Source: Isurus oxyrinchus
Lineage: Eukaryota
Assembly (NCBI GenBank): GCA_026770705.1
Contig: JANJGN010000034.1
Location: 4,526,001 to 4,590,000, forward strand
DNA: 64,000 bases
Reading direction: 5' to 3'
Below are positions 3,548 through 63,197 of this stretch, piece after piece (within the stretch, counting starts at the first letter, position 1; each line of letters begins with the position of its first letter). The notes under the pieces were generated by a model, which saw only the letters and a program-made list of their open reading frames with translations, was not told where the DNA came from and did not search any database. A program made the position numbers and the translations under genes.

Positions 3548-3583
3548 AGCTGACGGCATGCAAGAAATCCTTGAAAGAGTTAG
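3548..3583 (+). CDS. Micro-exon A1 (ELTACKKSLKEL)
   Basis: ttcctcttctcag|AGCTGACG..GAGTTAG|gtgaga, 36 nt. Confidence 0.85.
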
Positions 3584-21500: not shown

Positions 21501-24500
21501 GGTTGGTGAGGTGCTTTCGGTGCGACAGGCCATCCCAAGGGATCGTTCAGCTGGAAACATAAATAGTGTTTGTCATTAATTATTCTGTGAGTATGACAAT
21601 GACAATTACTTGACCCCTAATTTCGGATAAAAACTGAAAACGTGAAAAATCTCACCAGGTCTTTCAGCATTTGTGGAGACGGAAACTGATTAAACACTTT
21701 GTGTCCTTATCGGCCTCCTTTCAGGGCCATCAATCTCCTCCCCCTCTCCACTCCCTGCAATACATTTGTTGAGTAATTGGATAAAGGTTTGTGAAGGAAA
21801 CAAATGAAATATTTATTTTCTGTTATGAAATATCTCAAAGCCTATAAATAATACACTAAATATATAGGTATGAGGGAGCTTATTTCAATTTAGTCCTAAA
21901 ATAGGGCAAAATAAATGTGGATCAAAACATCCTTGTAATGTTTCGTGAGCAAAAAGAAAGATAACATTCATTTTTGATCAAGAGTTTGTAGTTAATGTAG
22001 ACCCAGTGCCAATAATAACCTTGGAATTCAATTCAGTGGAGTCGATACTTACATGCGCATGCCAGCTGGGCCAATATTTGAGGCTAATTTCAAACTACAT
22101 TTCGAGTTTATACCTGTATATTTGCCGCAGTGCATTGCAAAATCATCATCCTGTAACTCCAAATAGAACATGAGATATTGTTAAGCACGTTACTGAGGCA
22201 GATAGGATCAGATGTACCGGAGGGAATGAAAACCCTTTAAAGTTCACTTTGTTGCCTCAAGACCTGTACTCACTCCAAATTATTCGGCCAGGTATCATTA
22301 ACATTAAATCTCGCCTGATAATAAAATGGTGGTTTCACTTTAGAAATGCTGCTCCAGATTCTGAGGTAGATTTTGGAGAATGATCGTCATCCCTGTACCC
22401 AACCCCGTCACAAACTGATTCGTCGTGTTTTTTTGAAATATCCTTACATGGGGATCAATTTTTGCTTTAGTTATGCTTGCTTTAGTGTGCTTGCTTTAAA
22501 TTTGTCAAATCTACCGAAAGTCACATTCCACTTGAACACTTGAATGTGATGATCCACAACTGTATATTATTGGGTGAATTCAAGAGCCTCCTTGAAAACA
22601 TTATTCTTAATGTAATTTTTAACATCAGTCTATAATTGAGCTGAATCTGCAGTGGAGCATTTCAAAGTCCATTCTGCTTGTAATGAATAGCGGTGCCAGA
22701 ACTGAAAGCAATAACCTCCATGTAGAAAAACCTGAGCTTTATATAATTGCATACTTGACCTGTGCAACAACTCAAAAAATCTCAAAACGTTGTTCCTTTT
22801 GAGCATTTTTCTGCTGTTAATTGAATTAAATGCACATTTAACAGAAAGAGAAATGAAAACGAAAGAAGAGGGTAAATAATAGTGAAATCATTTATTAATA
22901 AAACGATTATAATTAAAGTTGTCCTCCGTTTGTCTTGTTTTCCCAAGTGCGTGTTGTGGAAGTGACTGCTGACAAACTGATTGAAATAGACTTGCAGATA
23001 GAATTCCGACTTTGCTGGTATAGATTCGGCTGCTGGAAGGCAGACATATGAGAGAGCTTCACTGTTTAAGCGTGAACGGCACTTTATTAGGCTCTTTTGA
23101 TTAGACGAGACTCACATCCAGTTCCAAAAGTGTCATTGGGCCTATTGTACACATTTTCACGCAGTTAATGCAGAATCGCTGCAACGACAGTTTTTGTTCT
23201 GAACTGGGAAGTAAATTAATAAAGACAGCGACGAATGACCAGAGGGCAGTGCAGTGTTTTCCTTTTCGTTATCATTATCTCAATTGTTACATCCTGTAAC
23301 GGATATTGCCTATTTTCCGTCAGAACACTTGAATTTGAATCAGGAAACAGATCGAACCATCCAAATGCTCAATGTTGGAGTTTTGTTTTGGTCCATTCGC
23401 CCATTGGGCAAGGTGGTGGGGCACAACATTTGCTGCAACATAAGAAAGTTTGCGATGGAACACAAGTGGCTTTATTTACGAACTGTTCGCAGTTTTAAAC
23501 CCTTGCATCCCCTCTAACCTCTCTTTCCTTGGAGCTTATTTGGACATAAAACAGAAACTGCCGGAACTATGATTGCAGCACCTTGACAGCAGCGCATGTT
23601 GCTTTCAGCAGCTTAACAGCTGATCACTGGCAGCCTCTCCCCTAAATCTCTTTGCTTGGCAGTTTCTCGTTCTAGTGGCATCACTTTCCGTTGCTTTGTA
23701 GTATCTGTTACAAATGATAATCTGTTCAAGATTGTGTGACATTTTGAGTTCATTCTGATTGTTTTTATCTTCTGTCTGAAAGCCGGCACATGAAAGCTAT
23801 TTACTCATGTTCCAAAGGTCTGCGATCATAGGCGCATTTTCACAATTCCAGAGCTCTCCAAATGCAACGAGGCTTTGAAAGAACTGGGTGAGTAAACGGA
23901 TATGTATAATGAAAAGTCTTGCACAGGACAAGGTAGCAATTGCATCTCCAAAAGAAATACAGCAAGGTTGATCATGTTCAGGTTGTTCGTTTTACCGCAT
24001 GATGCATCCCTAATACAATTCACTACTACGAATTCCGATATGAAGAGGGGTTGAGAACAGATATCCTTAAAATACCACATGTTTAGTATTTTTGCTGGCG
24101 CGATTTGTTTTGGCAACATCCTGAAATGTAGCGACGTTTTGTTGAGGCAGCCTTCTTTTCGGTCAATATTCTATGTTGTGCAAAAATGCTCAGCAATTGT
24201 AGCTGCATACAACTCCTTGAAACTTACAACATTCTTATAGGGCGCGACAGGAGGGGTGTAGATATGATGTTTCCGTTGGCTGCTGGCTGTATCCATAACC
24301 AGGGGGCTAGATTTCAGAATAAGAGAAACAGCTTTTCATATTTATGTAAGGAGAAATGCCTTCACCCAACGGCTGTTGGCTCCTTGGAATTCCCAACCCA
24401 CAAGGTTGTGGAAGCTAAATCGGTGAGCATATTCAGAAGACAAATGGGTTGATTAAAGGTGGTCAATAACGCCACACAATATGTAGACAGCATGGGATGG

Positions 24501-27500
24501 AGGACACGAGATCGATTAGCATCCTTTGTTCTAATTTAACGGTGGAGAACTCTCGACAAGCTGGAGAGCGTTCTGCTTTTTCTTTGTTCGTAAAGTAGTG
24601 TTTATTTCCTGCATTACTTTTTTTTGGCAACAATCCTTACCGTGGCCTTTCAAAGTGAATAAACTCTGTTTTACAGAAGGAAAATTGAAAGCAAAGGAAA
24701 AAGGTATTGCGTTTTGCATTTTAATTTTGCAAAGTTATAAAGCTGTTAATGAGAGTGTTCAAGACAGCCCATAATTAGATCAGACGTGCCATTCAATATC
24801 TATGTATATTTAAGTATCAAGTGTTCAAACAACAAATAAAGAACGTATTCAAAGGCAACTGTAAACCCAAACGGAGCCGGTATCAGCTTGTGATATGTAT
24901 GCTGATGCCCGCAGTAGTGGCGATGGGACTGACGATTCGTAATAACATTTTATATTTTTTTCCATACATATTTATACGATTCTGAACAGTTACTGTAAAT
25001 GTAAAATGGAAATTACCTTTACATCTTAATGACAACTCCATGTCGGAAAGTTGCACATCCTACTTGTGAAAAGCAAATAGTTGTGCTCTACTAAAGAAGA
25101 AAAAACACATTTGCATGGCTGGCCATGACTATTTGCAACCTTTCCAATTATATTTGAATTGCAATCAAAGGCATAGGGGAATAATGCAAAACGCTGGCAC
25201 TCTTGCTAATAAATTGACATCAATTTATTGATATTCAGCATTGAATGACAATGTAATGTCATAAATGTAAAGACATAAAATTATTTTTATTAGCATTTGC
25301 CAGCTGAATGATTAACAAACTGCCATGCTATGAAGCCTTCTGAAATAAAATCTCAAATCCGACCATCAATGTTTTTCGACTGATGTGCAGGAAGAGTCAT
25401 TCCCGTGAATCTGCAATTTCTTCACTGTTTGCATCTGAAGTTGTCTGTTTCCCTTCCTTCCAGAACTGGGAAGTGTCAAAAAAGCCGCTGATCACTCAGG
25501 TTAGCACATGGCGAGCGCTACCTTGCAAATTCTTCTCGTACAATAAAGAAAAAATAAGGATTGCAGATTATCACCTGATGTTAAATCAATGAAACAGACT
25601 TCTTGCTGGGGGCCATAAATGAGTATTTTAGATAAAGATGCTGGAACAATAAGAGGTAGCCAGTTGTTCAGAAATTTTGTTGGAAATACACATTTCGTTT
25701 AGATCCCAACTGATTCAACGTATGGAGGTAATTGAGAGATCTTGGATCGGCCTGCTAAATGCGCAGGTTTGCGTTGGGCAATTGTTCAGTGTACAACAGG
25801 AATATTGACCTTAAATAAACTGTAAAATTGGAGAACAGTGTACCCACTCATTGATGAAGGAAATCCAGTTTTTAATGTCCAGCAATGACATATTTCAGCA
25901 CTTCAGATTTAATGCAAAATATAATCAAGGTGCAAGAGCAGCAATTCTCTGACATGACCAGATCCACGACAGATGCACAGGAGAATTTGCGCCCTTTTTG
26001 AATGAAGGTTTGAAACACTGTTTATGGCAATGCAGCTCAGTGACATATTTAATGGTATCAGTTCTGAGAAGATCACTGGATCCTTTCTGGTGTTAGTTGA
26101 TAACATGTTATCTTTTAAGTCAACTAGCCTCAGTAAAAGAGATTAATTGGCAGTTCAATTATTCATCGAAGCTCCTGTTAACTTATTTATGTTTTCTGTA
26201 CGCAATTGAACAGTATCGTTTCTAATAGGGAATCAGTGACAAATTGCCAAACTAATTATTTGCTTCTAAAGCGATTTTGGACGTCATTGTGAATGGAAAT
26301 TGTTTTTTTTTTCTTGTAATCTCATACAGCGCTGGACCACTGGTCAATAGACCAGCTTTTACAAACTTTCTGAGACCGTAGTTAAGAATGAAGGTTATTC
26401 TTCGAAAGAAAGAGTTTTTTTTATCCCTCGACAATGAACTGAAGGCACAAGATGTAGCTCCGCGGCAGAAGGGTGCTCCTTTATATTCAAAAGCCTAACC
26501 ACCATTTACTAAAGCACTACACATTCAAGGTTCACATTTTGCAAAGCAGAGTATACTCACTTTTCCTCTCCTCTATGGACTGCATGTATATTGTGGAAGT
26601 CCATTTAGTTCGATTGAGACGATCTTTTTAGTGCCTACGCTAGCTAGGCCAATACATGTGCTTTGCCCTAAAATGTCCAAGTGTGTAGACATGGAATATA
26701 TGGCTAGCGTAATATCAAAGCTGCGACAATGGATTGGCATAAAACACATTTCTACACACAGTACTGAATCTCTGCTTTGGAATATACGAATATAAGGATT
26801 TATACCGTTCAGGAACTGTTCTGGTCTCGAACCAACGCACCTAAGTTACATTATTATATATTATTGCCAAATTAAATTTTATGTCTAAATTTTCAATAGG
26901 CGCCGGAATCTCAAAAATGCATGTAGACTAGTGTCCCACTTTTACCTCCTCTTCCCCCCACCCTCCCTCCCTGCCATCGTCCCAAACAGTGACTTTCACA
27001 AAATATTGCTGGCATCAAACCTCGACACTGTATGGATAATTATACATTGGAATTTTTGTCACTTACTAACATCTGAGAAATTTGTTTATGCCCACTGAAC
27101 CTCTGGAATGTGCATTTCCTCAAACACACTTGCATGACGTCACACATTCAGTTTCTATTCCTAATTGAATTCAAGTGGCTTTCTGGAAACCTTAATCATA
27201 ATTTAAATCTTAACGCGTTACTGTAGTTTTTATGACAGGGCATAGCTTCACCTTTGATTATATTCCGTCGTTAATCAGTTGAGTTACCCGAACATGAAAC
27301 CGGAATCTAAATGTGGTCAAACTTGATCTTCATCTAACTGAGAAAAGGACATATGCAAAAGCTAAAGCAATCCCAAATGCTCTTCTCTCGTGCAATTGTT
27401 GCTGTCTATACTAAATGTTTTACGCCATTTTAACAGGAGATGAACTTAAAGCAAAAGAAGCGGGTAACTGATTTTGAAATCTTCACCTTCAAATAACAAT

Positions 27501-30500
27501 GGACGTCTGATTAATAGTGCTTCTTGTTGTCTTTTTCCCCGAGTCGATGGTCAGGATATTACTATTTGGTGGGATAAGTGGATGAGAATTGGCAAATACA
27601 ATAGCCTTTTTGCCTGCCCTGATTGAAATATGTGATCGGTTTACATCTGAACAAGGTTCCCTGGTTCAGAGCCAAACTGAACTGACGTCGACCTTTTTGC
27701 AAGGGGGCGTTCACGTTCAGCACTGAATGTGTGATTCCGTCTTACCATGGCATTTTGACCCCGTCGATGCTGTTCCGAATTGGGAATAACGTTTCCAAAT
27801 CCTCAGATTTTAAGAGCAAGTGGAGTGTACCGATTCTCTTTCCGAAATTATTACTTCATTGTCAACCTTCGTAAATGACTAACTGCTTAGATCATGTTCA
27901 ATCAAATCAATATGAATCGGACAAACAGGCCAAACAATCCAAATGGTCCATATCAGTTTCTTTAATGTCCCCACCACCACCCTCGCCCTGACAAACTAAA
28001 GGAGAATATTAACAGAAACAACATTACAAATCTCTGAAATGTGAAACAGAAAATATTTTGCCCATGCTCTTCGGTCATTAAGTCATACATACTAGCAGTG
28101 TCTTCTTTTCTTTGAAATTATAAGAACACAATGACTCTCTGAAATGTTTGAGTTCATCCAATTTAAAGCACGTGTGTTTCACCTGTTCCCGACACTTGAC
28201 AAATTACATCATTTTATTCAGCTGTCCACCAACTGATCACTGGAGTTTCTTTTGAAAACATCACTTCTTTGCTATTTATCAGCCTTATGTAATTGAATTC
28301 ATTATCAGCTATGCGCTTATATTTTATTTTGGCTTCATAAATTATTGCCTGTTGTATGCCTTGTTATATTCGTTGCGAATGAGTTATGGTACAAAACTGT
28401 CTTTCCTTCCCAAATATTTTTGAATGACATTTCCCTTATGCAATCCGCCATATAAAGACAAGTTACCCTTCTTGCAAATAAACGTACTGGCGTACTCCTT
28501 TTCTTCATTGCAGAGCTCATTGCATGCAAAGAATCTCTGCAGGGTTTAGGTGAGAAATCCGAGATGAATTTGCAAAAGGCTCACAGCAGGTCCGTCAACA
28601 GTTTCATCTGGGATTTAAAAAGCAGAACTGGTATTCTCGCATTGCCCGACTCTTTTTAACCATTGTGCTATTTGTGATAACAGTTACTTCTGGCGTTTTA
28701 AATATCAGGTGTAATTTCAAATACGCGGGAATAAAATAACACCCCTTTAGGACGTTCATCTGAGTGGTATTTATTGGGCTATATGACTGAATGTAATGGT
28801 GCTATAATGAGGTTATTTAAACTTTGATTCTGCGGTCGATTTTAAGAATCACCCGCCAGTGAAAATTGTTTACCTCAATCTAACATACATAAGGCCATTC
28901 CACCTGAATGAACCATATGATTATCCCCCTCTAATCAATTGAATAAATACACTCTTCCTGAAATAAATATTCATATCTTAATTCTCAGTCGTTCGCTAGG
29001 AATGTCATCAAACTACACGTGAATACAAGAAGGCGCTTCGAACTTTTACTACATCCTCAATTCATTCCGTGCCCACTAATGAAAGCGGTAAACAGGCATT
29101 CAAGTTTGAAAAGTATCGAACTTTCGAAAAAAGAAAACCTCAAAACGACCCTACAGTTGCTAAAGTGCTTACTGTGTACTCTAATTACTTCCAATGCATT
29201 TCAACAGAAGGAAAATTGAAAATAAAAGAGGAGGGTAATTTATTGTATGATTTTTGTTTTACAGTAGTAACGAAGTCGTATTTTTCTTTTTACTGAGCCC
29301 CAAACAAGATTTTGCCAAAAATAGTTATGGGGGAACTTCGGGATGGGAACGCGGGAAGCGATTCAGTTTCCACTCATTAGTCTGATCTTACCAGGAGGAA
29401 ATTGGCGTGAGATTTCCTCGTTAATGGTTGCACTGCAGTGACATCCGCTTGATAGTTACGTTAAATTTCCATTGCATTTTTGAATGGGCGTTTCGTGCCT
29501 GTAGATGCATGTTGGCACAGTTGATGCTGAATGCCTACAATACTAAATTGTGTTCTATGTTTTGAGGTGGGGGTTATCGGGGCCGGGAAATTTCCAAAGA
29601 TCACGCTGAACAAGAGCAGGGAGCTGTCCCAATTCATTTTTCTGTTTCAGTAACTCAATTATCACTATTTAAAATCTATTAGCTGGTTACTTGCCAGTGA
29701 TTTACACCAATGTGTATTTTGTAAATGGACGATTCGTTGCTAATGGATTATATCGAGGTTTGTTTTACCCCAATTGGAGAGACAAATCCACGGCATTGTA
29801 TGCAGAATTTTTAGGGGTCTCTGAAAGGAAGAAGAAACCCTATTTCTACTCTGCATGGCCATCATTTAAGATGTCTCCTGTCTGGTCTCGTCTTCCACTT
29901 GAACATTAGCGAGAATGATATCCATGCGAGAGATTTAGTTTTATCGAATTGTGACCAATTTTGCTTCAGCAATATCAGTCACTTCAGACTCCAAGCATTA
30001 GCTTCAGCTGTTTGGAAGATGATCGATGGGCTTCAACTTAGACAACACAACTTCAGTTTGTTTCTATCTAATCTCATGTATTCCATCAGCCCGATATTTT
30101 CGACGTAGGAATTAGCTACAATTCCCTTCACCTGCGTTTGTGCCTCGTTATCATAAATATGGTGTGTCGGTTGTTGTGTCAATTTGACTGCCCTTTTCCA
30201 ATACTTTTGAATGATGGTTTATTAGCATGGTGCCATGTATAGGCTCGTTAATCTTGTAGCAAATTAACGTGTCTATAGCTTCATTTTCCTCTTTCTAGAG
30301 CTGACTGCATGCAAAGAATCATTGAACATTTTAGGTGAGAAAGTAGCCTTATTCATGAAAGCATACAGACGGTAATGTGTCAAAATGTCATCAGAGAAGA
30401 ATTGCAGCCAAGTCGTGCGGTTTTGGCTTTTTATGGTTCTATTCACTTCTGTGAATTTAAAAATCGTGTGGAGTAGAGAACAAACTGTCCTCATAATGTC

Positions 30501-32349: not shown

Positions 32350-32388
<39 letters not shown>

Positions 32389-53300: not shown

Positions 53301-56300
53301 ATTTGCTGCAAGTTAAATTATTTTTTAAATTCACTTAATTAGTGGCAGAAACGAAATCAAAAGAAGCAGGTAATTGATCACTAAATTACTGCTCACTAAT
53401 GGTAATTGAATTCATATCGTTCCTGTTTATGCTCAAGTGAATTGTGCTGAAATGATTATTGCGGGCATGAGTCCACGACGTGGCCGACGTGGCATTATTC
53501 GCTCTGCGCTTATATATGAATGATTCCACACCCCCTCCACCCCCCACACCACCACCCTGATTTAAGGCCGAACTGTCCTGACTTCAGTCTTGTACGTTAG
53601 GATGATAATCAAGTGCAAAACTGAAAGTATGATTTTTTAAATCGGGCACATCGTATTGCGATGAATGGCAGCCACCAAAATTTGTTTACAGATTTGGAGA
53701 GGAACTTGGTGAATGCGAGCAAAAAGGTGCGTTCTCATTCATTGTCCGAAATTATTACCTTGATGGGCGTAGTCTATCCCCGACTTTTGCCGTATTTACG
53801 TTGAGATATATTAATGCGCATCAGCGTAAGAAGAAAATGCCATTCGAGAAAATAAGGGATCTGAGTGATGTTTTGTCCCACAGCCCTCACCCCATCTCCT
53901 TGGTAATATAATAATCACATTATTCACAGCAGTTTTAGGAAATTGTGGCACGTTTTAAAACATTGGTTCTTCCGATCTTGTTTAAGCTTCCGAAAACTAA
54001 CCTTGTTTTGTTTTGTTTTCTTCCCCTGGAACATAAAGAAACACCTCTATCTCTGAGACACTTGCAGTTCTCTAATGTTGATCTATTGCTTAGCATTGAT
54101 CGTTGCCAATTGGTAGCTGATGGCGGTACTGAAAGCTGTTTAGCATCGAATTCGAGGGCTCCTACCTAAAAAAGATGTGCATTGCATTTTCGTTCTCACA
54201 TTCTGGCACTCGCTTATCTCCCTTAACGGAGATGTTTACTAAATAACACCTTATGCATATTGCGGTTTGCTGTGTTATATTTTCCGAAGGATGTTGTGTC
54301 GAATTCTCTTTTTTTCCCGCACTTTTCTGTGAAGCTCTCTCTCTGAGGATAAGTTGCTCTTTCTGCAAATTAATGTGCGTTTTGCTTCATTGCAGAGCTT
54401 ACGGCATGCAAAAAATCTTTAAAAGACTTAGGTGAGAAAAAAGTTGTATTCTGAAAACTGACACATGAAGACCCTCTAAGAATTTCTTCAGATGAAGCAA
54501 CGCTGCACTGTTGATATTGTGCTAGTTGTCTGCTTTACACACCGCCACAATCTTAGTTACATTCACTTGGATGGATTAAATTATCAGGTGGTCCGTACAG
54601 CACTGTGTTCATAAAATGCTTCCCGTAAACACTTTTGTCCAAGTTGCATTTCTAGTGCGAGATGACTGAATGCTATGTCTTATACAGGTTACATCGCACC
54701 GTCAGTTGGGCATATTTTCAACAGGGCACAGATATTTCCAAAATTAGTAAGCGCTTTATAGGATTACAGTTTCTGCGGCAAGCTTTCATGTTGTGCTCAA
54801 AATCTATATATTTTGATTTACAGAAGAAAAGCTGAAAGCTAAGCAAAACGGTATTAAGATCATAAATGCAAATGTTATAATGTGAATGGTGCCAGCGGTC
54901 AGGTGACACTGCAAAAAAGAAAAGGAAAACTGCAAAGTAATTTAATCAGTCGCGCCATTTATCTCAATACATAAATTTAATCATATTTCATTAATCCTGG
55001 GGCCTAATGAAAGTTGCCAGAATAAACGCAATTCAGACCCTATTTGCTTTTAGTCGATAACAGGGATATTGACGGTGATAGTTGCAACGATTTGCATAGA
55101 ATTAATTAATGATACGGAGTTGCGGACTTAGGTAATTACATGGATTTCAACAAATATTGCGAAAGAGACAGGAAAACTATCTTTAATTGATGATAAATAT
55201 ATCTTGACCTGGTAAGGGCACATCATTCTTGTGAAATGGATAGTGCTGTCCACATCTTCAGTGGTGTAGAAAATGTGGGTTTTCTTTGCCTATAATGCCT
55301 GTTTACTGTCGACCTAATTATCAGTCCATTTGCCATGAATGAAAAAGTAACATCATGCAGAGTACGTGACTACTTACGAAGAAAATGATGTTTAACATAT
55401 ATGCCATTATTGAATGGGAATACCAAAATATAATGACATTAAAACAACAAGAATGATTTATTTATCATTTGCTGCATTAATTTTACGGCAAATAGTGGTT
55501 ATCTGGAACCTTGTAAAACTGAATCTCAAATTAGGCTGCCAATGGTCTTTGCCTAACGTATATGAGCAGGAATGTTCAAGAAATCACAACCTCTTGATTG
55601 CACATATCTGAAGTGGCTTGTTCAACCTTTGTTTTGATGTGGCAGATGGTGTGTGCCAAAGAGCGAAATTCATGAGGTTGAACTGTAAAATAGTTTTGCA
55701 ATTTATATTTGTTTTGCGATTCCTGCACTGAATTCTGTCTTAATTTGCTTCCAAAGCTTTTGGAGATATAAAGAAAAATATAAGTTGAAATTAATTGAAT
55801 GAAATGTGACAAACGCACAAATAAGACGATATTTATTACTATTATAATTCCAAAAAATGATAATTAATTTCGCTCCCAATTGCAACATCGTTAAGGCAAC
55901 GGTCCAAAAGTAGACTTCAGATTTTAAACAGATCCAGGAAATGAACCGTGGAGTTCCAAATGTTTTTTTCTCCAGCTTCAGTTCCAGTTGATAGCAAGTT
56001 TATTGACAGCAGGTTCATGCGCAAATGCTGGAGACATTTCCCACACTTCTCACAACACCGTCCCCTGACGTATAGCCTTGCTATTCCTTATATACGTTTC
56101 TTCCTTTTAAATAAGTAAATTTTATGTTTTCATATGATTTGACACTGCACCTGCGTCAAAATAGAAATGCTGCTGCTATATATTTTCAGTACTCTTTGGA
56201 AAAAAAACAAACATCCCTTGGTCTTGCTTATCTGGCTAGTTGTAAACAGACTAAAACCACTTTGAAATACAAATGTTACTTCATCTATCAAAAATGGAAA

Positions 56301-59300
56301 TTATCTTCACACGAATGCAAATGCAACATCCATTTTTACTAAAGTATGCCAAGCGTATAGCGTATTTTGATTAGATAAAGGTTGCAGTTCGCTTGATTCC
56401 AATGGAAATTAAATCACACAAATATGAACAACTGGACTCCCCCTCATAATCATACTCGACAACAAACCTGAAAGATATTACGCAATTAATTATACTTTCA
56501 TTTAATCCTTCTAGAACTGGACGATGCCAACAATACCACCATAGAGTCAGGTAAGCAACAATGAGAAATTGGTTTGGAATATTACTGCCATGACGATTGG
56601 TTGGTATCTCTCTTCGACATTTAACCTATACTTTTTCATCGCCATCCTTTTATCATCCGCTTATTAGTGGTAATCGTGTAATTGTCTTTAACAGGGCGAA
56701 TATTTCATTGCACTGGACCTCTTGAAATTAATCATCCATTAATGTTCTATTGCAAGTTAAATTAAAGGCTAATTTTGAAATCTTTATTCATGTTATATTT
56801 CTTAAAGCCTCCCTGCAATTATCGTGAAGACGCAGTGTGTCACTTTCAATTTCAGTCTTTCGTTAATCAATTGCAGTGCCAGAACTGAATAAGTGGTCCA
56901 ACCTCAGCTTTAAGTAGCTGCTTAACTGGCATATGCATAATCTCAAAGCATCTCAGAACGCTTTATATTCTAATTGGTTTTAACGAACTTAACAGATGAA
57001 AAAATGAAATCAAACGAGAAAGGTAATTCACTTTGAAAACAATACTTCATAAAAACAATGCAAATCATATTCTTACATTTATTTTTCAAGTGGTTGCTGC
57101 GGAAATGGCGGATCGGAAGATTAGTTAACGGGAGATTGAGAAGTCAATGACCATGTTATGTGTCTTGGTTCATTTGGTGGTGGGCTTACACCTTAGCGAG
57201 ATTTCTGTGTTTAATGCTAAGCTTCACTGGCTTTGGCTACTGTATCGGAACGTAATATTATTTCATCACTGAAAATGTGTTTCCTTCCTTCTGGCACATT
57301 TTTGGCTCAGTTTATGCTGAATTTCTGCCAAAAAAAACTTGCTTTTAATTAGGAAGTCAAATTCCAAACACCCCGCGAACAAGAGCAAATGTCCTGTCAC
57401 GAATCACTTTTTAAATTGACACCTCACATTTCATAATCTAAAACAGAACATCCGCGTAAATTATAATTAAAAATATTAATGAGTATGAGGACACATATCA
57501 TTCGATCTAAACACTCTATGTTTGATTTTGGCCTTGTCCCGCTCTTCCCTTCCACAATGCAGTGTCATACAATACTCGCAGTGATGCCCTGTGTCTCAGA
57601 AATTTGGAGTAATACCGACTTTCTTTCCCCAAAACTGTTCACAGTCGCTGAATAAAATTCCAGCAACTAACTCACTTACCAACAGCACTGTGGTCGTGCT
57701 TAAATTCACATGGACTGCAACAGTTCAAGTGCAACTGGGGATTGAGACAAAATGTTGGTCAGGCTATTGAAACCTCCATCCGTTCATGAATTTTTAAAAT
57801 ATTCTCGATATCTTCTTCCATTAGAACATAAAGGAATAACGGAACCCTCCAGGATAATTGCGTTTCTCCAATGATTTGGCCGCGTTACCTGCCCTCTGAT
57901 TCGCTTTCATATTTGTTTTTTGTCTAATTTTATCTCTAGTTTTGGATTAGTTTCCATGAACGTTTGTCATTCTTGTTGTGGTTAGCGCCATATGATGCCA
58001 AAATAATCTTGTTGCAAACAGATACTTTCTTTATTCCAGAGCTGGGTCAATGCAAAGAATCCTTGAAAGGCTTCGGTGAGAAAACATACACAGATTATGA
58101 AAGCCATCGGAAAACATCAGGGCAACAATTTATTCTGGAAAAGATATAAGTGCTGTTGATATTTTGGCCATCAGTTTTCTTCCAGGAAATTTGACTTATA
58201 TATATAAAACCATCAAGCAATAAATATAACAGGAGGTTAACGTAATACTAGACAGATTGTTATTTGTTCTTCCACATGCCTGAATGTAGTGACGTCCTAC
58301 TTAGGTAACCAATCAAATTCTCTTTGGTCTGTATCACATGCGGTAGAGCAATGCAAAACAACTGCATCTGTATTTGATAATTGTGTTGTTCACAGTAAAG
58401 AATGATGTTAAATGATAAAGTCATTATTTCTGTTTTACAGAAGAAAAACTTAAAGCAAAGCAAACCGGTAATATGCCTTGGTATTCAACTACTATAAATG
58501 CATTAATAAAATCTGTTAGCAATGAAATATTAGCAGAGGCTGTGATTCATTTTACCGTGGATTTTATGATTGGGATGTTGATGGTGATAGTTGCAAAGAC
58601 CCAAATGACGATCTGTCAGAAGATTGACTTTTATTCATGTTGCATAATGACACGATCTTGGACATGTATTCGAAATTTACAAGGAACAGTACCTTTATTT
58701 GTTAATACCTGCCTCATGCCTGAGGCAGACACGTCGTTATTGTGAAAAGTAAAGTGTGATTTTTGTCCGATATGATAATAAAAAAAGATTTTTTTTCCTG
58801 TGTAGCAGACCTTTTAGCAGTTGAACTAATTTTCCATTTGCCTTCAGTGGAGAAAGTGGAACAAACAGATGGAATTAATGTCAGCTCAAATAATACTCAC
58901 CATTGAATGGATGGATCTTCAAAAACGTATTGCAATAAGAAGCTGAAAATCAAATTAGTTATTTTTATAGTGGCAGTGTGATTCCAAATTTGGTTATCTG
59001 CTCCAATTGGATGCAGAATTTCACATCGGGTTACCAATACGTATGGACTGATGTGCACGGAACGATATGCTAAGAATTCCAAATCTCTCCATTGTCTATA
59101 GATGAAGTGATCTATTCTTCATCCTTCTAGAACTGGACGATGTTAAAAAGGCTGCCGATGGAACAGGTTAGCACACAGCAAAGGTTAAGGTTGGAACGCC
59201 TGTTGGTAATAGGCTGACATTGAGGATTACAACATTGAACACGTATTATAATTTTCTGTGAAGTCAATAAAGCAGTATCTCTGGTGAGGAATTTAAGCCA

Positions 59301-62300
59301 TTTATATTCTTCAATCGTCTGAGACAGAAAGGTTCTGCAGTCCTCCTGACATCATCGGGACCTTAACATTCAATTCAGAACTCAAATGAATCTGCAAAGT
59401 GGAGGTGATCAAAATGAATTAAAGAGGCATGGAATATAAGCAAACTAACTTCTTGCAACAATTACGTCTGCAATTGAACTGTCCAATTTAGCGAACTCAG
59501 CAATGGAAGGAGTCTGTAACAACTTATTGACGAATGAACTCCTGGCTATGAGAAGTATAAATTTCAAAGTTACATATCTGGGGGAAATATAATTAATATG
59601 TTGCAACAGCAACAATATGGCATGAAGAAGTCCAAGCCACATGCAAAGTCCGCAGAAGAAATTAACACGTAGCAAAAAATTATTCGGATTTTTCTTCACT
59701 CGAAATTTAATCGTTTAGTTGATGGAGCAGTGCCTGTGGAATCACAAAACTGAAATTCACAGAAGCCCCCCTGGCTTTCGAGGGAAATAGGTCTTTTTCA
59801 CTCAGCCAATCTCAGTAGAAATAATAAATGTGCTTGCATGCTATTTGTTTTTCATTTAAATTTTGTTTACTGTGTGCCAAAAATGAGAAATTCACTCCCA
59901 ACATTGCATCAGACACATATTTGCAAACATGTGTATCTGCCAGTAAAGCGTTTATGGACTGGCAGAAATACATTATACAGGTCACCAATAATGCTTCTGT
60001 CAAATAGGCAGCCATTAGTTTTGAAAAACCTTGAAGAGATGCATTCAAAGGTTTTGAGTTTCTCTTCGAAGTAAAGAGATGAAATGGTTTACTTCCACAA
60101 AAGCAGAATTCGAAGCATAAAAGTAATCTTTAAAATGTACACGTGAGAGGAATCTTGCTTACACTGACGACGCTAACACAGCTATCCACGAAATAAATGT
60201 TGAGTGAAACTGCGTTTCAATGATTCTATGTAGCAAAAGAGAGTTGTCATCATGTTTACTATAGTCCATGTCTACAGCAATAGCATCCACAGGCATTTAT
60301 AAGCTTCAAATTCAATTCTGTAGATTAGATTAATGCATGCCCATCACTGGCTTGATCAAAAATTTTTCCCAATCCCAAGCGAGCATAAATGAAAAAGTGC
60401 TGCTGTGCATAAGTGAGAGTCTACCCTATCAAGCTCGTTGAGATGCAGCTCATCTCTACCCACAATTATGAAGCTTAAAATAGGAACATACGAATAGGCA
60501 GCTTAGATGCTCAAATTTCACTTAAATCCGGGAAGATATGGACCGAGCTATTTTCAAAGCCATCTTCGTGGCTTTCGTACGTAACATTCTCTAATTTAAA
60601 ATAATGTTTGAAGTTCTGTAGCCAAGCACTGAGGGAGTCCCTAAAACATGCACATCAGTCGTTGATCAGTTTTCTCCTGTCTACATGCTCCCACGGCATT
60701 TTATTGACATCACCCCACGATGTTTTATAAATAATCTTAAACTGTTCTTTTTATAGCTTCCTAATCTTATATGGTGTAAAATTTTACTGCACTCGAGCCT
60801 TAAAACTGCTAGACCATTAACGTTCTATCCTGAAGCGATTTCAAGCTTTTTTTTTTTACCAAACGTTCATTCGTAATTCATATCTTAAAGCATCGCTGCA
60901 ATTTTGGTGAATCTCCAGTATATGTGATTTCCAGGTCCTGCCCATCTCTTTTCAGTTGTGGTACGACAACTCAAAACAAGGTTAAACATGATCATTATCT
61001 AAATGCATAACTGATATAAACACAAAAACTCAATTCATCACATAACGCCCTTCATATTTTTCAAAGTATACAGTCTGTTGTAATTAATATTCATGCACTT
61101 TTGCAGAGAAAGAACTGAAATCAAAAGAAGCGGGTAATTGATTGTAAAATCATTATGTCAGAACGGCATTGCAAGTGAAATGTTCCCATTCTTTTTTTGA
61201 GTGGATGCTGTGAAAATAGCTTTTTGGGAGATTGCTTACAAGGTGATGGAGAAACGAATATTATTACCCTCTTGATTCAAACGGTGCTGAGCATACATCT
61301 GAGCAAGGTTTCTTAGTTTTAGGCTGAACTGCACTCTCTTCGACTTGTGTGCAACTAATTTATTCTATTGCAGCATTGAGAATATGTTTCCTTGCTTCAG
61401 GCGCATTTTGACTCAGTTGAGTCTGAATTACCGTAAACGTACTTCAAGCCCCGATTGGAATTACAATTCAGAGGGATGTCGTCCAATCCTCTTTCCAAAT
61501 TAACAATTCAAATATCATAAACCATGACCTGCATAGTTTGCATTAAATTACACGAGGACAATAGGACAATCAAAATAAACTAAACATCTCTAAATTTTGT
61601 TTCCTCCCACTTTCCCAATTTATAATGGGTTTGGGAAACAATATTCGCAGTCCTGTTAGGAATGTCTGAAAGTTTCGGCAACATATATGTGTTCCCCCTA
61701 ACTGTTAAAGGTTAACATAAAAGCTCAATACTCTCCATCTGTTTTCTAGTACACAAAACAAACAAAACAGCCCTCTTACGTCCTTGCACTTCTCCAATAC
61801 TGCCAAATGTGCATCCAAAATGTACGCCCCCTGACAGCTGCCAACATTACTTTCAACTTGGTATAATCTGGAATTGCTCACTTGAGGAACTTTGCTTTGC
61901 TGTTTATCACTCCAATATGTTGGCATTATTTGTTAGTTCCATCCTTAACAAAAAAACATATCCACATAGACTCATTACCTGTCTCCTGCCACGTTGCTGT
62001 TTTTGTTGTGCACAGGTTTCTCTGTTAGAAGATACATAGCCCTCGAATGTATTTAACAAGCCTTTTTTGTTGAAGCTGCCAATATGGTGGCACGTTAAGC
62101 TTATCACAAATTAAAATGTTCCTCATTCCAGAGCTCACTGAATGCAAAGAGTCTTCGAAAGATTTAAGTAAGAAAACATACTTCTCACGTAAAATAACTC
62201 CATAGTAAAGGCAGGGCAGCAACGTCATATAGGACACTAAAGCAGGACAGGTGACAACGATTTATACGGAGCTTTTACCCTTTGGCCATTTTATAACAGA

Positions 62301-63197
62301 TAGGTCCTCCTCATCAGTATCGTATTTGAACAGTTGCTTGTCTGAATCTAATGGTGGCATATTGATGCGACCAATCTTCTTTGTGTTGGCCAATATTCCA
62401 ATTGCTGCAGGGATGGGCACAATTAGCCTGCTTTCTGGAAGTGCACTGTTCACACTGGAATTTGCCGTTGTCTCATGAAGACATTAATTTCTGATTTATA
62501 GAGGAAAAGTTGAAGGACGTTCAAAAAGGTATTTCATTTATCAATCCAACCGGCTAAGGAGGCATTACGAAGAGTGGTGTGAAGAACATACTGCAAGATG
62601 ATGAGAGTTGTGATGAAGTGAAGGTGGATTATTAATTACATTGAATTTTTTTTTCAATGCATAATTGAACGAACTTGAAAAGTTTTTTTTTATTTTCAAA
62701 TTTCTGCTTTAAATAACCTTTACATATTGATAGCTAGGTCATGCGAACAGATCCAATACATTTTTCTGAAAGTCCAGATGTGATCTCCGTCTTCTAAACC
62801 AAGGAATAATACACAAAATCATTTTTCTGGCGCGCCTGCTTCTAGTCGCCCCAAGTTTCGTGTTGTTTGTCATCAGGGGAAAAAGGAAATCATGCAACCT
62901 ATGCATCCAATGAATCTCAACTCAAAATTTGTTAATCACTGAATGGATATAGCATCAACCGTTCAATATAGCACGCAAGGGAAATGTGGTTGTTTAGTGC
63001 TATTCAGACAACAGCTTAAAATTAGGTTGTGTGCATCGTTGGAGCATAATTTTACATTGAACCACCTATGGATTTGGTCCGTTGTGGAGGAAGACGCATA
63101 TATGGAATTTGTAATATCTTGATTGTATATATCTGAAATGATCTATTCTTCCTTCTTCTAGGACTGGACGGTTTCAAAAAAGTTATTGGTGACTCAG
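3548..63197 (+). CDS. Internal part of a multi-exon gene: tandem array of 27/36-nt phase-1 micro-exons encoding a long Cys-containing heptad coiled coil; start and stop outside the window
   Basis: 48 homologous micro-exon copies of 4 types, most with polypyrimidine-AG acceptors and GT donors, lengths 27 or 36 nt, all phase 1-1. The joined translation is open, e.g. ELTACKKSLKDL-EEKLKAKQN-ELDDANNTTIES-DEKMKSNEK-ELGQCKESLKGF-EEKLKAKQT-ELDDVKKAADGT-EKELKSKEA. Confidence 0.85.
3974..4000 (+). CDS. Micro-exon B1 (EDKLKRKQN)
   Basis: ctttacag|AAGATAAG..AAAACG|gtttta, 27 nt, weak donor. Confidence 0.75.
4693..4728 (+). CDS. Micro-exon C1 (ELDDIKTATNGS)
   Basis: ccttccag|AACTGGAC..GGCTCAG|gtgagt, 36 nt. 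Confidence 0.85.
5680..6690 (-). mobile_element. Decayed CR1-type LINE fragment (RT and 3' part of ORF2)
   Basis: Minus-strand ORF pieces VANFADDTKK..LQVDVGRL..WHMELNVEKCEVVH and YRALLRLHLKYCVQFSS. Confidence 0.85.
7520..7626 (+). repeat. G-rich low-complexity tract
   Basis: Runs of G with repeated gggcgtgaggtggggggg units. Confidence 0.8.
8073..8099 (+). pseudogene. Dead micro-exon D1
   Basis: AA AAA TAA GCG ACA TCA AAA GAA GGA G|atgaaat: in-frame TAA and donor GT changed to AT; expected position ~0.9 kb before A2. Confidence 0.6.
8991..9026 (+). CDS. Micro-exon A2 (ELTTCKESLKAL)
   Basis: attccag|AGCTCACC..GCATTAG|gtgaga; intact but flanked by damaged exons. Confidence 0.7.
9429..9454 (+). 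pseudogene. Damaged micro-exon B2 (26 nt, frameshifting)
   Basis: ttgcag|AAGAAAAGC-GAAAGCAAAACAAAATT|gtatta; 1-nt deletion against the B consensus CTG. Confidence 0.7.
10194..10229 (+). CDS. Micro-exon C2 (ELGEFKKAADRQ)
   Basis: ttcttcaag|AGCTGGGA..AGACAAG|gttagc. Confidence 0.65.
11903..11926 (+). CDS. Micro-exon D2, shortened to 24 nt (EKEIKSKK)
   Basis: ttcgcag|AGAAAGAAATAAAGTCAAAAAAAG|gtgaac; original donor lost, a GT 3 nt upstream keeps frame. Confidence 0.6.
12924..12959 (+). pseudogene. Dead micro-exon A3 (ELNSCKEYLKEL)
   Basis: Acceptor cctg instead of ccag; donor gtatga. Confidence 0.7.
13165..13275 (-). repeat. Short interspersed repeat fragment
   Basis: Reverse complement reads aaaatcttggaaaaatcagctggtctgagggcatccatggaccgaaatacagagttaac, similar to the + copy at ~21630. 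Confidence 0.5.
13478..13504 (+). pseudogene. Micro-exon B3 (DIKLNEKEK) ending in T; would form a stop with the next exon
   Basis: ttgcag|ATATAAAGCTG..GAAAAGT|gtatta; T plus AA or AG gives TAA or TAG. Confidence 0.65.
13810..14550 (+). mobile_element. Highly decayed CR1-type LINE fragment
   Basis: gtggagttccacagggc..cttggg (RT region) and a 3' end gggctgaatggccttcttctg. Confidence 0.65.
15038..15073 (+). pseudogene. Dead micro-exon C3 (ELDDVAKAAGSS)
   Basis: Acceptor cctg instead of ccag; donor gttggc. Confidence 0.7.
17047..17071 (+). pseudogene. Damaged micro-exon D3 (25 nt, frameshifting)
   Basis: ttaag|AAAAGAAATTAAACCAAATATCTAG|gtaaat at the D position ~1 kb before A4. Confidence 0.55.
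18089..18124 (+). pseudogene. Dead micro-exon A4 (VHNPCKESLKGL)
   Basis: ttctcag acceptor intact; donor atacga (GT changed to AT). Confidence 0.7.
18600..19760 (-). mobile_element. Probable decayed LINE fragment inserted where exons B4/C4 are expected
   Basis: Higher-GC block that interrupts unit homology; family and orientation not firmly assigned. Confidence 0.4.
19830..21210 (+). mobile_element. Old CR1-type LINE 3' fragment with a nested younger copy
   Basis: QGDLGIQV..ILSFITRGIEHK..VVLQFARAPVTPHLE; continues after 21040. Confidence 0.8.
20605..21040 (+). mobile_element. Younger 5'-truncated CR1-type insertion with candidate 8-bp target-site duplication acttttga
   Basis: MRGDLNENYRTLKGLDRMDVGKM..RTRG; tail ggtcttat-ggtcatat-ggccttat; acttttga at 20597-20604 and 21041-21048. 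Confidence 0.75.
21628..21730 (+). repeat. Short interspersed repeat fragment
   Basis: aaaactgaaaacgtgaaaaatctcaccaggtctttcagcatttgtggagacggaaactgattaa, homologous to the minus copy at ~13200. Confidence 0.5.
22845..22871 (+). CDS. Micro-exon D4 (EREMKTKEE)
   Basis: tttaacag|AAAGAGAA..GAAGAGG|gtaaat. Confidence 0.85.
23852..23887 (+). CDS. Micro-exon A5 (ELSKCNEALKEL)
   Basis: attccag|AGCTCTCC..GAACTGG|gtgagt. Confidence 0.85.
24210..24540 (+). mobile_element. CR1-type LINE 3' fragment in the A5-B5 intron
   Basis: LLETYNILIGRDRRGVDMMFPL..VVEAKS. Confidence 0.7.
24677..24703 (+). CDS. Micro-exon B5 (EGKLKAKEK)
   Basis: ttttacag|AAGGAAAA..GAAAAAG|gtattg. Confidence 0.85.
25464..25499 (+). 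CDS. Micro-exon C5 (ELGSVKKAADHS)
   Basis: ccttccag|AACTGGGA..CACTCAG|gttagc. Confidence 0.85.
27437..27463 (+). CDS. Micro-exon D5 (GDELKAKEA)
   Basis: ttttaacag|GAGATGAA..GAAGCGG|gtaact. Confidence 0.85.
28514..28549 (+). CDS. Micro-exon A6 (ELIACKESLQGL)
   Basis: cattgcag|AGCTCATT..GGTTTAG|gtgaga. Confidence 0.85.
   Translation, partial: SSLHAKNLCRV
29208..29234 (+). CDS. Micro-exon D6 (EGKLKIKEE); this unit lacks B and C
   Basis: tttcaacag|AAGGAAAA..GAGGAGG|gtaatt with D-type flanks. Confidence 0.8.
30299..30334 (+). CDS. Micro-exon A7 (ELTACKESLNIL)
   Basis: ctttctag|AGCTGACT..ATTTTAG|gtgaga. Confidence 0.85.
30707..30732 (+). pseudogene. Dead micro-exon B7
   Basis: ttttgctg|GAGGAAAGTGACAACAAAGAAAAACA|at; both splice sites lost, at the expected distance from A7. 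Confidence 0.45.
32316..32388 (+). repeat. (TG)n/(AG)n microsatellite
   Basis: gtgtgtgt..gagagag run. Confidence 0.9.
32480..35040. mobile_element. Cluster of highly decayed CR1-type LINE fragments in both orientations
   Basis: + fragment ~32500-33100, - fragment ~33200-34000, + 3' fragment ~34430-35040 ending ggcctactgctgttcttaac; boundaries approximate. Confidence 0.55.
35492..35528 (+). pseudogene. Dead micro-exon C7
   Basis: Acceptor cttg; a 1-nt insertion gives AA CTG GAC AAA GTT TAA; donor altered. Confidence 0.65.
36940..36965 (+). pseudogene. Dead micro-exon D7 (EGKIKSVEE-like)
   Basis: ttaactg acceptor and ataatt donor, both mutated. Confidence 0.6.
38106..38141 (+). pseudogene. 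Dead micro-exon A8 (DITTCKEDLRDL)
   Basis: attccag acceptor intact; donor ctgaga (GT changed to CT). Confidence 0.7.
38520..38546 (+). CDS. Micro-exon B8 (EAELNAKQE)
   Basis: ctttacag|AAGCAGAG..CAAGAAG|gtggga. Confidence 0.8.
39200..39235 (+). pseudogene. Dead micro-exon C8 (ELDKVKKAAESS)
   Basis: Acceptor ttcctt (no AG); donor gtttgc. Confidence 0.7.
40184..40219 (+). CDS. Out-of-pattern A-like micro-exon (ELKTCKDTVKET); alternative acceptor at 40175 adds 3 codons
   Basis: ttattacag|acaattcag|AACTCAAAACCTGTAAAGACACTGTGAAAGAGACAG|gtacgg. Confidence 0.7.
41487..41513 (+). CDS. Micro-exon D8 (EEKMKSKDE)
   Basis: tttaacag|AAGAAAAA..GACGAAG|gtaaat. Confidence 0.85.
42503..42538 (+). CDS. Micro-exon A9 (ELTTCKKSWKKL)
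   Basis: cattgcag|AGCTCACC..AAATTAG|gtgtgg. Confidence 0.8.
   Translation, partial: SSPHARNHGKN
42850..43860 (-). mobile_element. CR1-type LINE 3' fragment with a second repeat nested at ~43480-43620
   Basis: LINE 3' end cacagaa..gaaggagtccatcagacccatcg; minus ORF WIPLPGRVPEACTIKAFGRKL; lengthens the A9-B9 intron. Confidence 0.65.
44019..44042 (+). CDS. Micro-exon B9 (EKLKGKQN) using a shifted acceptor
   Basis: Canonical acceptor mutated (ttacac at 44015); AAG 3 nt downstream gives an in-frame 24-nt exon; donor gtatta. Confidence 0.55.
44771..44806 (+). CDS. Micro-exon C9 (xLDEIEKAANDS)
   Basis: ccttccag|AACTGGAT..GACTCAG|gttagc. Confidence 0.85.
46790..46816 (+). CDS. Micro-exon D9 (EEKAKSKDK)
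   Basis: ttcgacag|AAGAAAAA..GATAAAG|gtaatt. Confidence 0.85.
47650..47995 (-). mobile_element. CR1-type LINE 3' fragment
   Basis: aacattaggcttaggagcagggagaggcc..tcatagctgatct..ttcaatgacccc, the reverse complement of a LINE tail. Confidence 0.65.
48274..48309 (+). CDS. Micro-exon A10 (ELNDCKKSFKVS)
   Basis: cattccag|AACTAAAT..GTCTCAG|gtgaga. Confidence 0.85.
48602..48628 (+). CDS. Micro-exon B10 (EQKLKEKQE)
   Basis: ctttacag|AACAAAAA..CAAGAAG|gtacta. Confidence 0.8.
48927..49250 (+). mobile_element. tRNA-derived SINE (decayed)
   Basis: 5' ggggaggcggtggcatggcggta (A-box-like), ggtttcgaattcc (B-box-like), A-rich tail. Confidence 0.6.
49662..49697 (+). CDS. Micro-exon C10 (ELDIVRKNAENS)
   Basis: ccttccag|AACTCGAC..AACTCAG|gttggc. 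Confidence 0.85.
53343..53369 (+). CDS. Micro-exon D10 (VAETKSKEA)
   Basis: ttaattag|TGGCAGAA..GAAGCAG|gtaatt. Confidence 0.7.
54396..54431 (+). CDS. Micro-exon A11 (ELTACKKSLKDL)
   Basis: cattgcag|AGCTTACG..GACTTAG|gtgaga. Confidence 0.88.
54824..54850 (+). CDS. Micro-exon B11 (EEKLKAKQN)
   Basis: atttacag|AAGAAAAG..CAAAACG|gtatta. Confidence 0.85.
56515..56550 (+). CDS. Micro-exon C11 (ELDDANNTTIES)
   Basis: ccttctag|AACTGGAC..GAGTCAG|gtaagc. Confidence 0.85.
56996..57022 (+). CDS. Micro-exon D11 (DEKMKSNEK)
   Basis: cttaacag|ATGAAAAA..GAGAAAG|gtaatt. Confidence 0.85.
58040..58075 (+). CDS. Micro-exon A12 (ELGQCKESLKGF)
   Basis: tattccag|AGCTGGGT..GGCTTCG|gtgaga. Confidence 0.85.
58441..58467 (+). 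CDS. Micro-exon B12 (EEKLKAKQT)
   Basis: ttttacag|AAGAAAAA..CAAACCG|gtaata. Confidence 0.88.
59131..59166 (+). CDS. Micro-exon C12 (ELDDVKKAADGT)
   Basis: ccttctag|AACTGGAC..GGAACAG|gttagc. Confidence 0.88.
61107..61133 (+). CDS. Micro-exon D12 (EKELKSKEA)
   Basis: ttttgcag|AGAAAGAA..GAAGCGG|gtaatt. Confidence 0.88.
62132..62167 (+). CDS. Micro-exon A13 (ELTECKESSKDL)
   Basis: cattccag|AGCTCACT..GATTTAA|gtaaga. Confidence 0.85.
   Translation, partial: SSLNAKSLRKI
62502..62528 (+). CDS. Micro-exon B13 (KEKLKDVQK)
   Basis: atttatag|AGGAAAAG..CAAAAAG|gtattt. Confidence 0.8.
63162..63197 (+). CDS. Micro-exon C13 (GLDGFKKVIGDS)
   Basis: tcttctag|GACTGGAC..GACTCAG|gttagc. Confidence 0.8.

Follow-up and report, generated by a model that had tools for sequence, protein, structure and literature searches.

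A microexon array with a terminal B30.2 exon

The window analysed here is a stretch of 64,000 nucleotides from the 4.98-Gb genome of the shark Isurus oxyrinchus (contig C34, 4526001-4590000; window-relative coordinates are used beyond its ends). It lies within an array of phase-1 microexons of 21, 27 or 36 nt, which spans about 800 kb (about -512 kb to +286 kb) and runs past both window ends. The subject of this report is the pattern in which short (27-nt) and long (36-nt) exons have been lost from the array, and its bearing on the coiled coil that they are predicted to encode. With a filter for strong splice sites, the array was found to hold 209 exons of 21, 27 or 36 nt, or about 2,070 amino acids (aa), seven of them on the reverse strand. 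The exons of the window were recovered by repeat search and position-weight scans, every one with phase-1 ends; on the reverse strand of the window the same searches gave nothing comparable.

The array ends with a 27-nt exon, followed by an intact B30.2 exon of 172 aa at +290.5 kb (L056:6507), 227 kb downstream of the window end. Its SPRY half matches PF00622 (E=2.9e-14); the PRY half gave no Pfam match at E<=0.001. The nearest database proteins are from sharks, at 61% (catshark) and 51% identity; the identity to such unnamed shark proteins is 51-61%, against 29-35% to the B30.2 domains of named TRIM proteins. No further B30.2 exon was reported across C34 3.47-4.82 Mb. Five related B30.2 exons are present on the contig, those other than the array's own lying at 2.71, 3.47, 6.40 and 7.50 Mb. 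The gene at 3.47 Mb is a head-to-head paralog on the opposite strand, whose own 27/36-nt array begins at -551 kb and thereby bounds the present gene upstream. The whole array and the B30.2 exon are likely to form one shark gene of about 800 kb with a single transcript.

A long and a short exon (36+27 nt) together encode 21 aa with a hydrophobic period of 3.5 residues. The core positions in this pair are 2, 5, 9, 12, 16 and 19. Leu occupies positions 2 (44/47), 9 and 16 (30/47), either Leu or Ser position 12, and Lys position 19. The 3-4 hydrophobic spacing continues across exon junctions, and a chain of 61 exons from D4 (exon names as listed below) yields 637 aa without a stop, with one proline and again a peak period of 3.5. 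This period agrees with the heptad coil proposed in an initial annotation of the window, and the predicted product of the array is a heptad coiled coil of great length with B30.2 at its end. By analogy with the architecture of butyrophilins, BG and TRIM proteins, the rod may oligomerise and keep the B30.2 domain at a distance. Core position 5 is occupied by Cys in 31 of the 47 live long exons (in A and E exons throughout), which on the helix model would make a regular cysteine ladder along the predicted rod.

Stops are found in one of 95 splice-intact copies, compared with 11 of 46 splice-broken ones (p=1.6e-5). The live exons from D4 on deviate from their own class at 79 of 502 second codon positions (16%) and at 158 of 502 third positions (31%; p=5e-9). 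Together with the intact B30.2 exon, this purging of stops and third-position bias bear out the earlier view that a functional coding gene is present, which on these sequence grounds is very likely. A search of sequencing runs gave no RNA run containing the B30.2 exon. Two possible RNA runs, compared with 22.7-42.6 kb, matched short repeat pieces or nothing, and are uninformative on expression.

Exon classes and inventory of the window

From -99 to +98 kb the repeat unit comprises five classes, namely A (36 nt), B (27 nt), C (36 nt), E (36 nt) and D (27 nt). Class E, which follows C by about 1 kb in most units, is missing from the four classes recognised initially. A copy was called live when AG..GT was present and no stop occurred, and live and dead states were called from the DNA alone. 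The counts exclude a marginal hit at -63146 and, in their final form, include three live exons from classes outside the model (-76681, -37826 and -32835); ten other extra candidates were set aside as noise (the reverse strand gives 26 similar hits). The window holds 55 copies of 27- and 36-nt exons; 39 of these lie in the zone 22845-63197, where 29 are live. In the list, a break is a junction of consecutive live exons of the same length type, and the related species is one whose contigs are about 92% identical.

A1, 3548-3583, +: 36 nt, live
B1, 3974-4000, +: 27 nt, live, weak donor
C1, 4693-4728, +: 36 nt, live; following live exon also long (break)
E1, 7058-7093, +: dead relic
D1, 8073-8099, +: dead, donor gone, stop
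A2, 8991-9026, +: 36 nt, intact, strong; breaks on both flanks
B2, 9429-9454, +: 26 nt from AG to GT, frameshifting
C2, 10194-10229, +: 36 nt, live, acceptor AAG
D2, 11903-11929, +: dead at 27 nt; a good donor would yield 24 nt
A3, 12924-12959, +: acceptor dead
B3, 13478-13504, +: 27 nt, AG..GT, donor the weakest in the set; followed by live D4, also short (break)
C3, 15038-15073, +: acceptor dead
E3, 16044-16079, +: donor dead
D3, 17045-17071, +: dead relic
A4, 18089-18124, +: donor dead
E4, 21832-21867, +: acceptor dead, stop
D4, 22845-22871, +: 27 nt, live; donor G altered in the related species
A5, 23852-23887, +: 36 nt, live
B5, 24677-24703, +: 27 nt, live
C5, 25464-25499, +: 36 nt, live
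D5, 27437-27463, +: 27 nt, live; mostly gone in the related species via a 126-nt deletion
A6, 28514-28549, +: 36 nt, live; intact in the related species as well
D6, 29208-29234, +: 27 nt, live; B, C and E copies not found in the interval from A6
A7, 30299-30334, +: 36 nt, live
B7, 30706-30732, +: both ends dead
C7, 35492-35527, +: dead (acceptor, insertion, stops)
E7, 36486-36521, +: donor dead; absent from the initial annotation
D7, 36940-36966, +: dead, faint relic
A8, 38106-38141, +: donor dead
B8, 38520-38546, +: 27 nt, live
C8, 39200-39235, +: acceptor dead
E8 (initially A'), 40184-40219, +: 36 nt, live, weak acceptor; replaces C8
D8, 41487-41513, +: 27 nt, live
A9, 42503-42538, +: 36 nt, live
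B9, 44016-44042, +: AC at acceptor, 24-nt rescue site very weak; sole break from D4 onward
C9, 44771-44806, +: 36 nt, live
E9, 45759-45794, +: dead
D9, 46790-46816, +: 27 nt, live
A10, 48274-48309, +: 36 nt, live
B10, 48602-48628, +: 27 nt, live
C10, 49662-49697, +: 36 nt, live
E10, 50647-50682, +: dead
D10, 53343-53369, +: 27 nt, live
A11, 54396-54431, +: 36 nt, live
B11, 54824-54850, +: 27 nt, live
C11, 56515-56550, +: 36 nt, live
D11, 56996-57022, +: 27 nt, live
A12, 58040-58075, +: 36 nt, live
B12, 58441-58467, +: 27 nt, live
C12, 59131-59166, +: 36 nt, live
E12, 60107-60142, +: AG..GT kept, in-frame stop; acceptor 7.7, donor 4.2
D12, 61107-61133, +: 27 nt, live
A13, 62132-62167, +: 36 nt, live
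B13, 62502-62528, +: 27 nt, live
C13, 63162-63197, +: 36 nt, live

The exons named in the initial annotation were found at the positions it gave, with phase-1 ends, from the start of D4 at 22845 to the end of C13 at 63197. Unit 6 indeed contains no B and C copies, with 694 bp from A6 to D6, and the splice dinucleotides of B7, C7, D7, A8 and C8 are broken, making them unusable as proposed. The dead run from B7 to A8 had been described as four exons long; it is dead, and with E7 it comprises five copies. Likewise, the exon at 40184 is an intact 36-nt exon as described, and is the class-E copy of unit 8 rather than an extra exon. Assembly errors, raised at the time as a possible cause of the dead sites, are unlikely: multiple lesions were seen in several of the dead copies, and the contigs of the related species run colinear with A6-D6-A7 and with 32.4-42.6 kb, so that the missing exons of unit 6 are not an assembly error either.

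Three features of the window may be added to the list. If included, E12 could act as a poison exon. Between D10 and A11, a candidate at 53700-53726 (27 nt, AG..GT, coil-like peptide, weak acceptor) was excluded from the counts; its use would create one more short-short junction. The B7-C7 intron (30750-35450), which lies within the five-exon dead run, is about 4 kb longer than usual and contains high-copy repeats and a GT microsatellite.

The C and E classes, both long, appear to exclude each other. The dead E copies of the window start at 7058, 16044, 21832, 36486, 45759, 50647 and 60107. Eighteen units have a recognisable copy of each class; none of these has both live, 14 have one live and four have neither (p=0.013, or p=0.034 without two recently duplicated units). 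The tree of units is star-like, so that the units can be treated as near-independent replicates. As the E lesions mostly differ between units, the two observations suggest that each unit settled its C/E redundancy separately.

Alternation of short and long exons

Every exon of the 27/36-nt array can be dropped without shifting the reading frame. The heptad register is more demanding: at 720/7 degrees per residue, a deficit of 9 or 12 residues rotates the hydrophobic stripe by some 154 degrees, and no shift could be worse, whereas 21 residues can be lost with a rotation of zero degrees. In the 48-exon part of the D4 chain that follows B9, dropping one random exon lowers the period signal from 10.9 to a median of 3.4. 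The initial annotation, noting that a loss of 12 or 9 aa alone would shift the heptad phase and that a paired loss would keep it, claimed a strict alternation of short and long exons from D4 to C13 and took it as a sign of selection on register as well as on reading frame.

The claim was compared with a conservative null in which C and E are merged into one slot and live/dead labels are shuffled. Within 22845-63197, none of 29 junctions breaks when B9 is used in its 24-nt form (P=0.011) and one of 28 when it is not (P=0.053 for this strict count of the zone originally examined). From 63162 to +118 kb, a further 55 kb that the initial annotation did not cover, 0/31 junctions break where 4.3 breaks are expected (P=0.003), despite eight dead copies. 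Four further losses lie in this stretch, and all of them keep register. Taken together, the 95 kb from D4 to +118 kb contain one break in 59 junctions against 8.0 expected by random loss (P=3e-4), and it is in this stretch that alternation, although not strict, is nearly complete. For the whole of -99 to +118 kb the figures are 8/96 and 20.0 (P=1.4e-4). Over the 95 kb from D4, paired loss is genuine and exceeds what chance would give, yet the tendency is soft and confined to this block.

The single break downstream of D4 is at B9. This exon had been regarded as a one-residue exception used at 24 nt. The phase does shift, by about 103 degrees for the 24-nt form, and it shifts likewise when B9 is skipped. 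However, the rescue acceptor scores -0.5 (lowest live acceptor 2.5) and the donor 0.0 (5th percentile of live donors 3.9), which makes the rescue doubtful, and B9 is more likely skipped. In-frame cryptic alternatives passed the thresholds for three of 47 dead copies (-50843, 11903 and 76683); the alternative sites of B9 did not.

Several observations weigh against a general rule. Between -99 kb and D4, seven of 37 junctions break (10.25 expected, P=0.14), much as under random loss, and the break rates on the two sides of D4 differ (p=0.005). In the window itself, 3/6 junctions in 1-22845 break, which the choice of D4 as starting point had left out; there, C1, A2 and C2 are three consecutive intact long exons, with C1 and A2 both strong. 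Loss events kept the register in 10/18 cases overall, a coin toss if adjacent exons tend to die together from other causes, being 7/8 from D4 onward (p=0.035 vs a coin toss) and 3/10 upstream. A recent duplication of 27 kb in the upstream part placed three short exons side by side; that one of them then lost its donor while its twin kept it speaks for selection on register, but one short-short junction persists at the boundary with the two short exons left. In the older parts of the array, 13/44 and 9/25 junctions join exons of the same length, many of them 27-27, as scored with a set cut-off by which some exons are missed; alternation in the head-to-head paralog is likewise clearly broken in places. 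Single exons are also missing from homologs: database isoforms of Narcine (X3) and Callorhinchus (X2), both predicted models, are without single 9-aa segments. Finally, comparison with the orthologous locus, as had been proposed, did not give the expected result. The related species shows a changed D4 donor and a 126-nt deletion that takes most of D5 (found in two studies, among 40 of 1,456 differences listed). A6, the neighbour of D5 that could be compared, had been predicted to be dead where D5 has been lost; it is intact there in 4/4 runs, which would be unlike paired loss. The loss of D4 in the related species would remove the short-short junction B3-D4, and may in this way save the rule. 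The D5 deletion may save it too by leaving a 6-nt exon (donor 6.1), equal to nine minus seven residues, if the flanks match those of the window.

Exons flanking breaks were not, as a group, weaker or more diverged (p=0.26-0.97). One exon with a donor below 4.5 was present at 4/7 breaking junctions and at 12/86 others (Fisher p=0.015; rank test p=0.11). In the older parts, from -330 to -100 kb and from +118 to +286 kb, runs of the type 27-27-36 are frequent and include 27-nt exons of long type; such runs may point to a period other than the heptad, or to exons that were missed. In the head-to-head paralog, a long and a short exon flank two 21-nt exons, which at that place leave the register unchanged; 30-nt exons occur too.

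An internal control is provided by the 21-nt exons that lie from -455 to -331 kb, where one exon equals one heptad. The block contains 70 copies of two alternating classes, 33 of them live. The two classes match the first seven residues of the long exon and the last seven of the short exon in the same phase, and the two layouts therefore differ by exactly one heptad. Across all 70 copies 12/69 junctions join the same class, so that the block mostly alternates; among live exons this rises to 16/32, against 12.2 expected from random loss. Such unpaired losses support independent loss as the background process. A point against the control is that its coding signature is marginal (second vs third codon position, p=0.18; core residue in 32/33 live vs 26/33 dead copies, p=0.054), and the block may simply be decaying.

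It is on balance probable that the exon losses between D4 and +118 kb are paired since selection removes out-of-register rods; breaks would be nearly absent there because the loss of a single exon twists the rod out of register. A point lesion would kill one exon and create a mildly harmful out-of-register junction, and it would mostly persist when an adjacent exon of the opposite length has likewise been lost or is skipped. The constraint would be soft, with B9 and the seven upstream out-of-register junctions awaiting compensation or facing relaxed selection. The earlier claim of selection on register is supported downstream (1/59) and by the unpaired 21-nt losses, and not upstream (7/37). 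The main rival, rather unlikely in our judgement, explains paired loss by the mechanics of splicing or mutation together with luck. Microexons could be mutually dependent for recognition, or indels could silence whole stretches; half of the runs would be even by chance, and the duplication of even-numbered units would preserve alternation at no cost. This would suit the overall count of loss events and the random pattern upstream of D4, as well as the repeat-rich insertion of about 4 kb enclosed by the B7-A8 run and two events that are clean deletions; moreover, the boundary at D4 was picked after the fact. Against it, most dead exons carry separate point lesions, and the closest neighbours, A and B (about 400 bp apart), make no two-exon losses, which are mostly B+C or D+A. 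The 21-nt block has a similar spacing without pairing, register is kept in nearly all downstream events, including every one beyond the zone examined initially, and parity leaves the C/E exclusivity unexplained.

A functional gene could also skip single microexons freely, the alternation being ancestral, the rod tolerating kinks and selection acting on frame and length only. The homolog isoforms, the tolerated breaks at B9 and upstream, the retention of A6 in a species that lost D5 and the imperfect alternation in the older parts all speak for this possibility. It is nonetheless improbable, as it explains neither the lack of out-of-sample breaks nor why C and E are never both live. That the array is a pseudogene, or that its dead sites are assembly errors, is very unlikely. 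In its favour, one in three 27/36-nt copies and one in two 21-nt copies are dead, a start exon could not be located and RNA evidence was not obtained. On the other side stand the intact B30.2 exon with its catshark match, the purged stops and the third-position bias, and, for assembly errors, the colinear related species.

A wider reading is put forward tentatively and seems to us rather unlikely. Cartilaginous fish would possess a family of giant, barely annotated genes with rods assembled from half-modules of 9 and 12 residues, and the short+long pair would be the unit of both evolution and splicing: C and E would be mutually exclusive alternatives, exons would be skipped in pairs, and rod length would be tuned in steps of 21 residues. 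Exon gain and loss are usually judged by the three-base frame; if this were true, a second "reading frame" of seven residues would govern them as well. With about 20 near-independent units, in which any exon can go without harm to the frame but only a pair without harm to the structure, and with the 21-nt block as control, the array allows selection on protein register to be tested directly by comparing shark genomes. It also reveals a coiled-coil/B30.2 gene family of about 2,000 residues, for which database searches gave only short models.

Known families and neighbouring loci

The chicken BG tail, as described in PMC5938342 and PMC4046983, is a long heptad coiled coil encoded by many tiny split-codon exons of variable number. 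These accounts give BG proteins an IgV and a transmembrane region and 27-37 mostly 21-nt tail exons, and contrast them with mammalian butyrophilins ending in B30.2. The shark gene is BG-like in its heptad tail of tiny split-codon exons and in its 21-nt exon block. It is unlike BG in its roughly 200 exons of mostly 27 and 36 nt, in its B30.2 end, and in that single exons are not register-neutral. The butyrophilins of BTN3A1 type (as presented in PMC7348870) and the B30.2 TRIMs also have a coiled coil followed by a terminal B30.2/SPRY exon, as here, where the link to the window exons in one transcript is inferred. They have few heptads plus IgV-IgC-TM (TM, transmembrane), or RING and B-box, none of which was found here.

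No Ig motif occurred in open reading frames (ORFs) from -860 to -450 kb, and 0/107 ORFs from -560 to -460 kb, picked from longer lists, matched Pfam. The interval separating the two head-to-head genes showed neither a RING motif nor a Pfam match, and genome-wide V-set and SPRY scans placed nothing at the array locus among the 150 candidates scored in each. The only plus-strand transmembrane candidate (L100:6381-6499) was rejected as a dispersed repeat with many genomic copies. With Ig, transmembrane and RING exons not found, the gene would not appear to belong to the BG, butyrophilin or TRIM families; it resembles a BG tail joined to a B30.2 head of butyrophilin/TRIM type.

A parallel to paired loss is known from dystrophin, for which PMC3748829 describes that in-frame loss of exon pairs, or multiples of two, keeps the heptad pattern and that other losses do not. 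That work models the structural effect of patients' deletions within spectrin repeats, whereas the shark array, if our reading is true, would hold the evolutionary footprint of fixed losses among plain coiled-coil microexons. A literature search that reached few subscription journals turned up no article describing this shark family, and none treating paired loss of exons in evolution.

Chondrichthyan models named TRIM39/58/69-like and A33-like (XP_038668997.1, XP_042191566.1, XP_055510696.1 and XP_069775384.1) belong to the same divergent subfamily of B30.2 domains as the exon of the array. Like the present gene, they have a K/E/L-rich helical segment before B30.2, with isoforms that differ by pieces of 6-9 aa. 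Unlike it, they are 200-380 aa long and without the giant rod, and are either truncated predictions or short relatives. No RING or B-box motif was seen in these TRIM-named sequences, and full-length homologs were not found among proteins of 302-2000 aa or cluster representatives. Intact B30.2 exons of the subfamily (36-59% identity) at C34 6.40, 7.50 and 2.71 Mb and at C21 89.7 Mb are likely the ends of further giant genes. The head-to-head paralog occupies C34 from about 3.47 to 3.97 Mb on the minus strand, with about 100 microexons of 27/36 nt and its own B30.2 exon.

Some minor features lie outside the window. A repeat copy at L100:6250-6650, 8 kb before the 21-nt block, matches C34 3405123-3405514 at 82%, other copies at about 71%, which hints at a local segmental duplication. 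An ORF of 199 aa at L085:7815-8411 looks like a remnant of a retroviral envelope gene, by impression only. At 83338-83373 (window-relative), an A exon is seemingly frameshifted inside and is still 36 nt long and open, with hydrophobic core positions. A tandem duplication of 7.4 kb at 100732-114124 (window-relative), with identical short and long exons, is either an in-register duplication or an assembly artefact.

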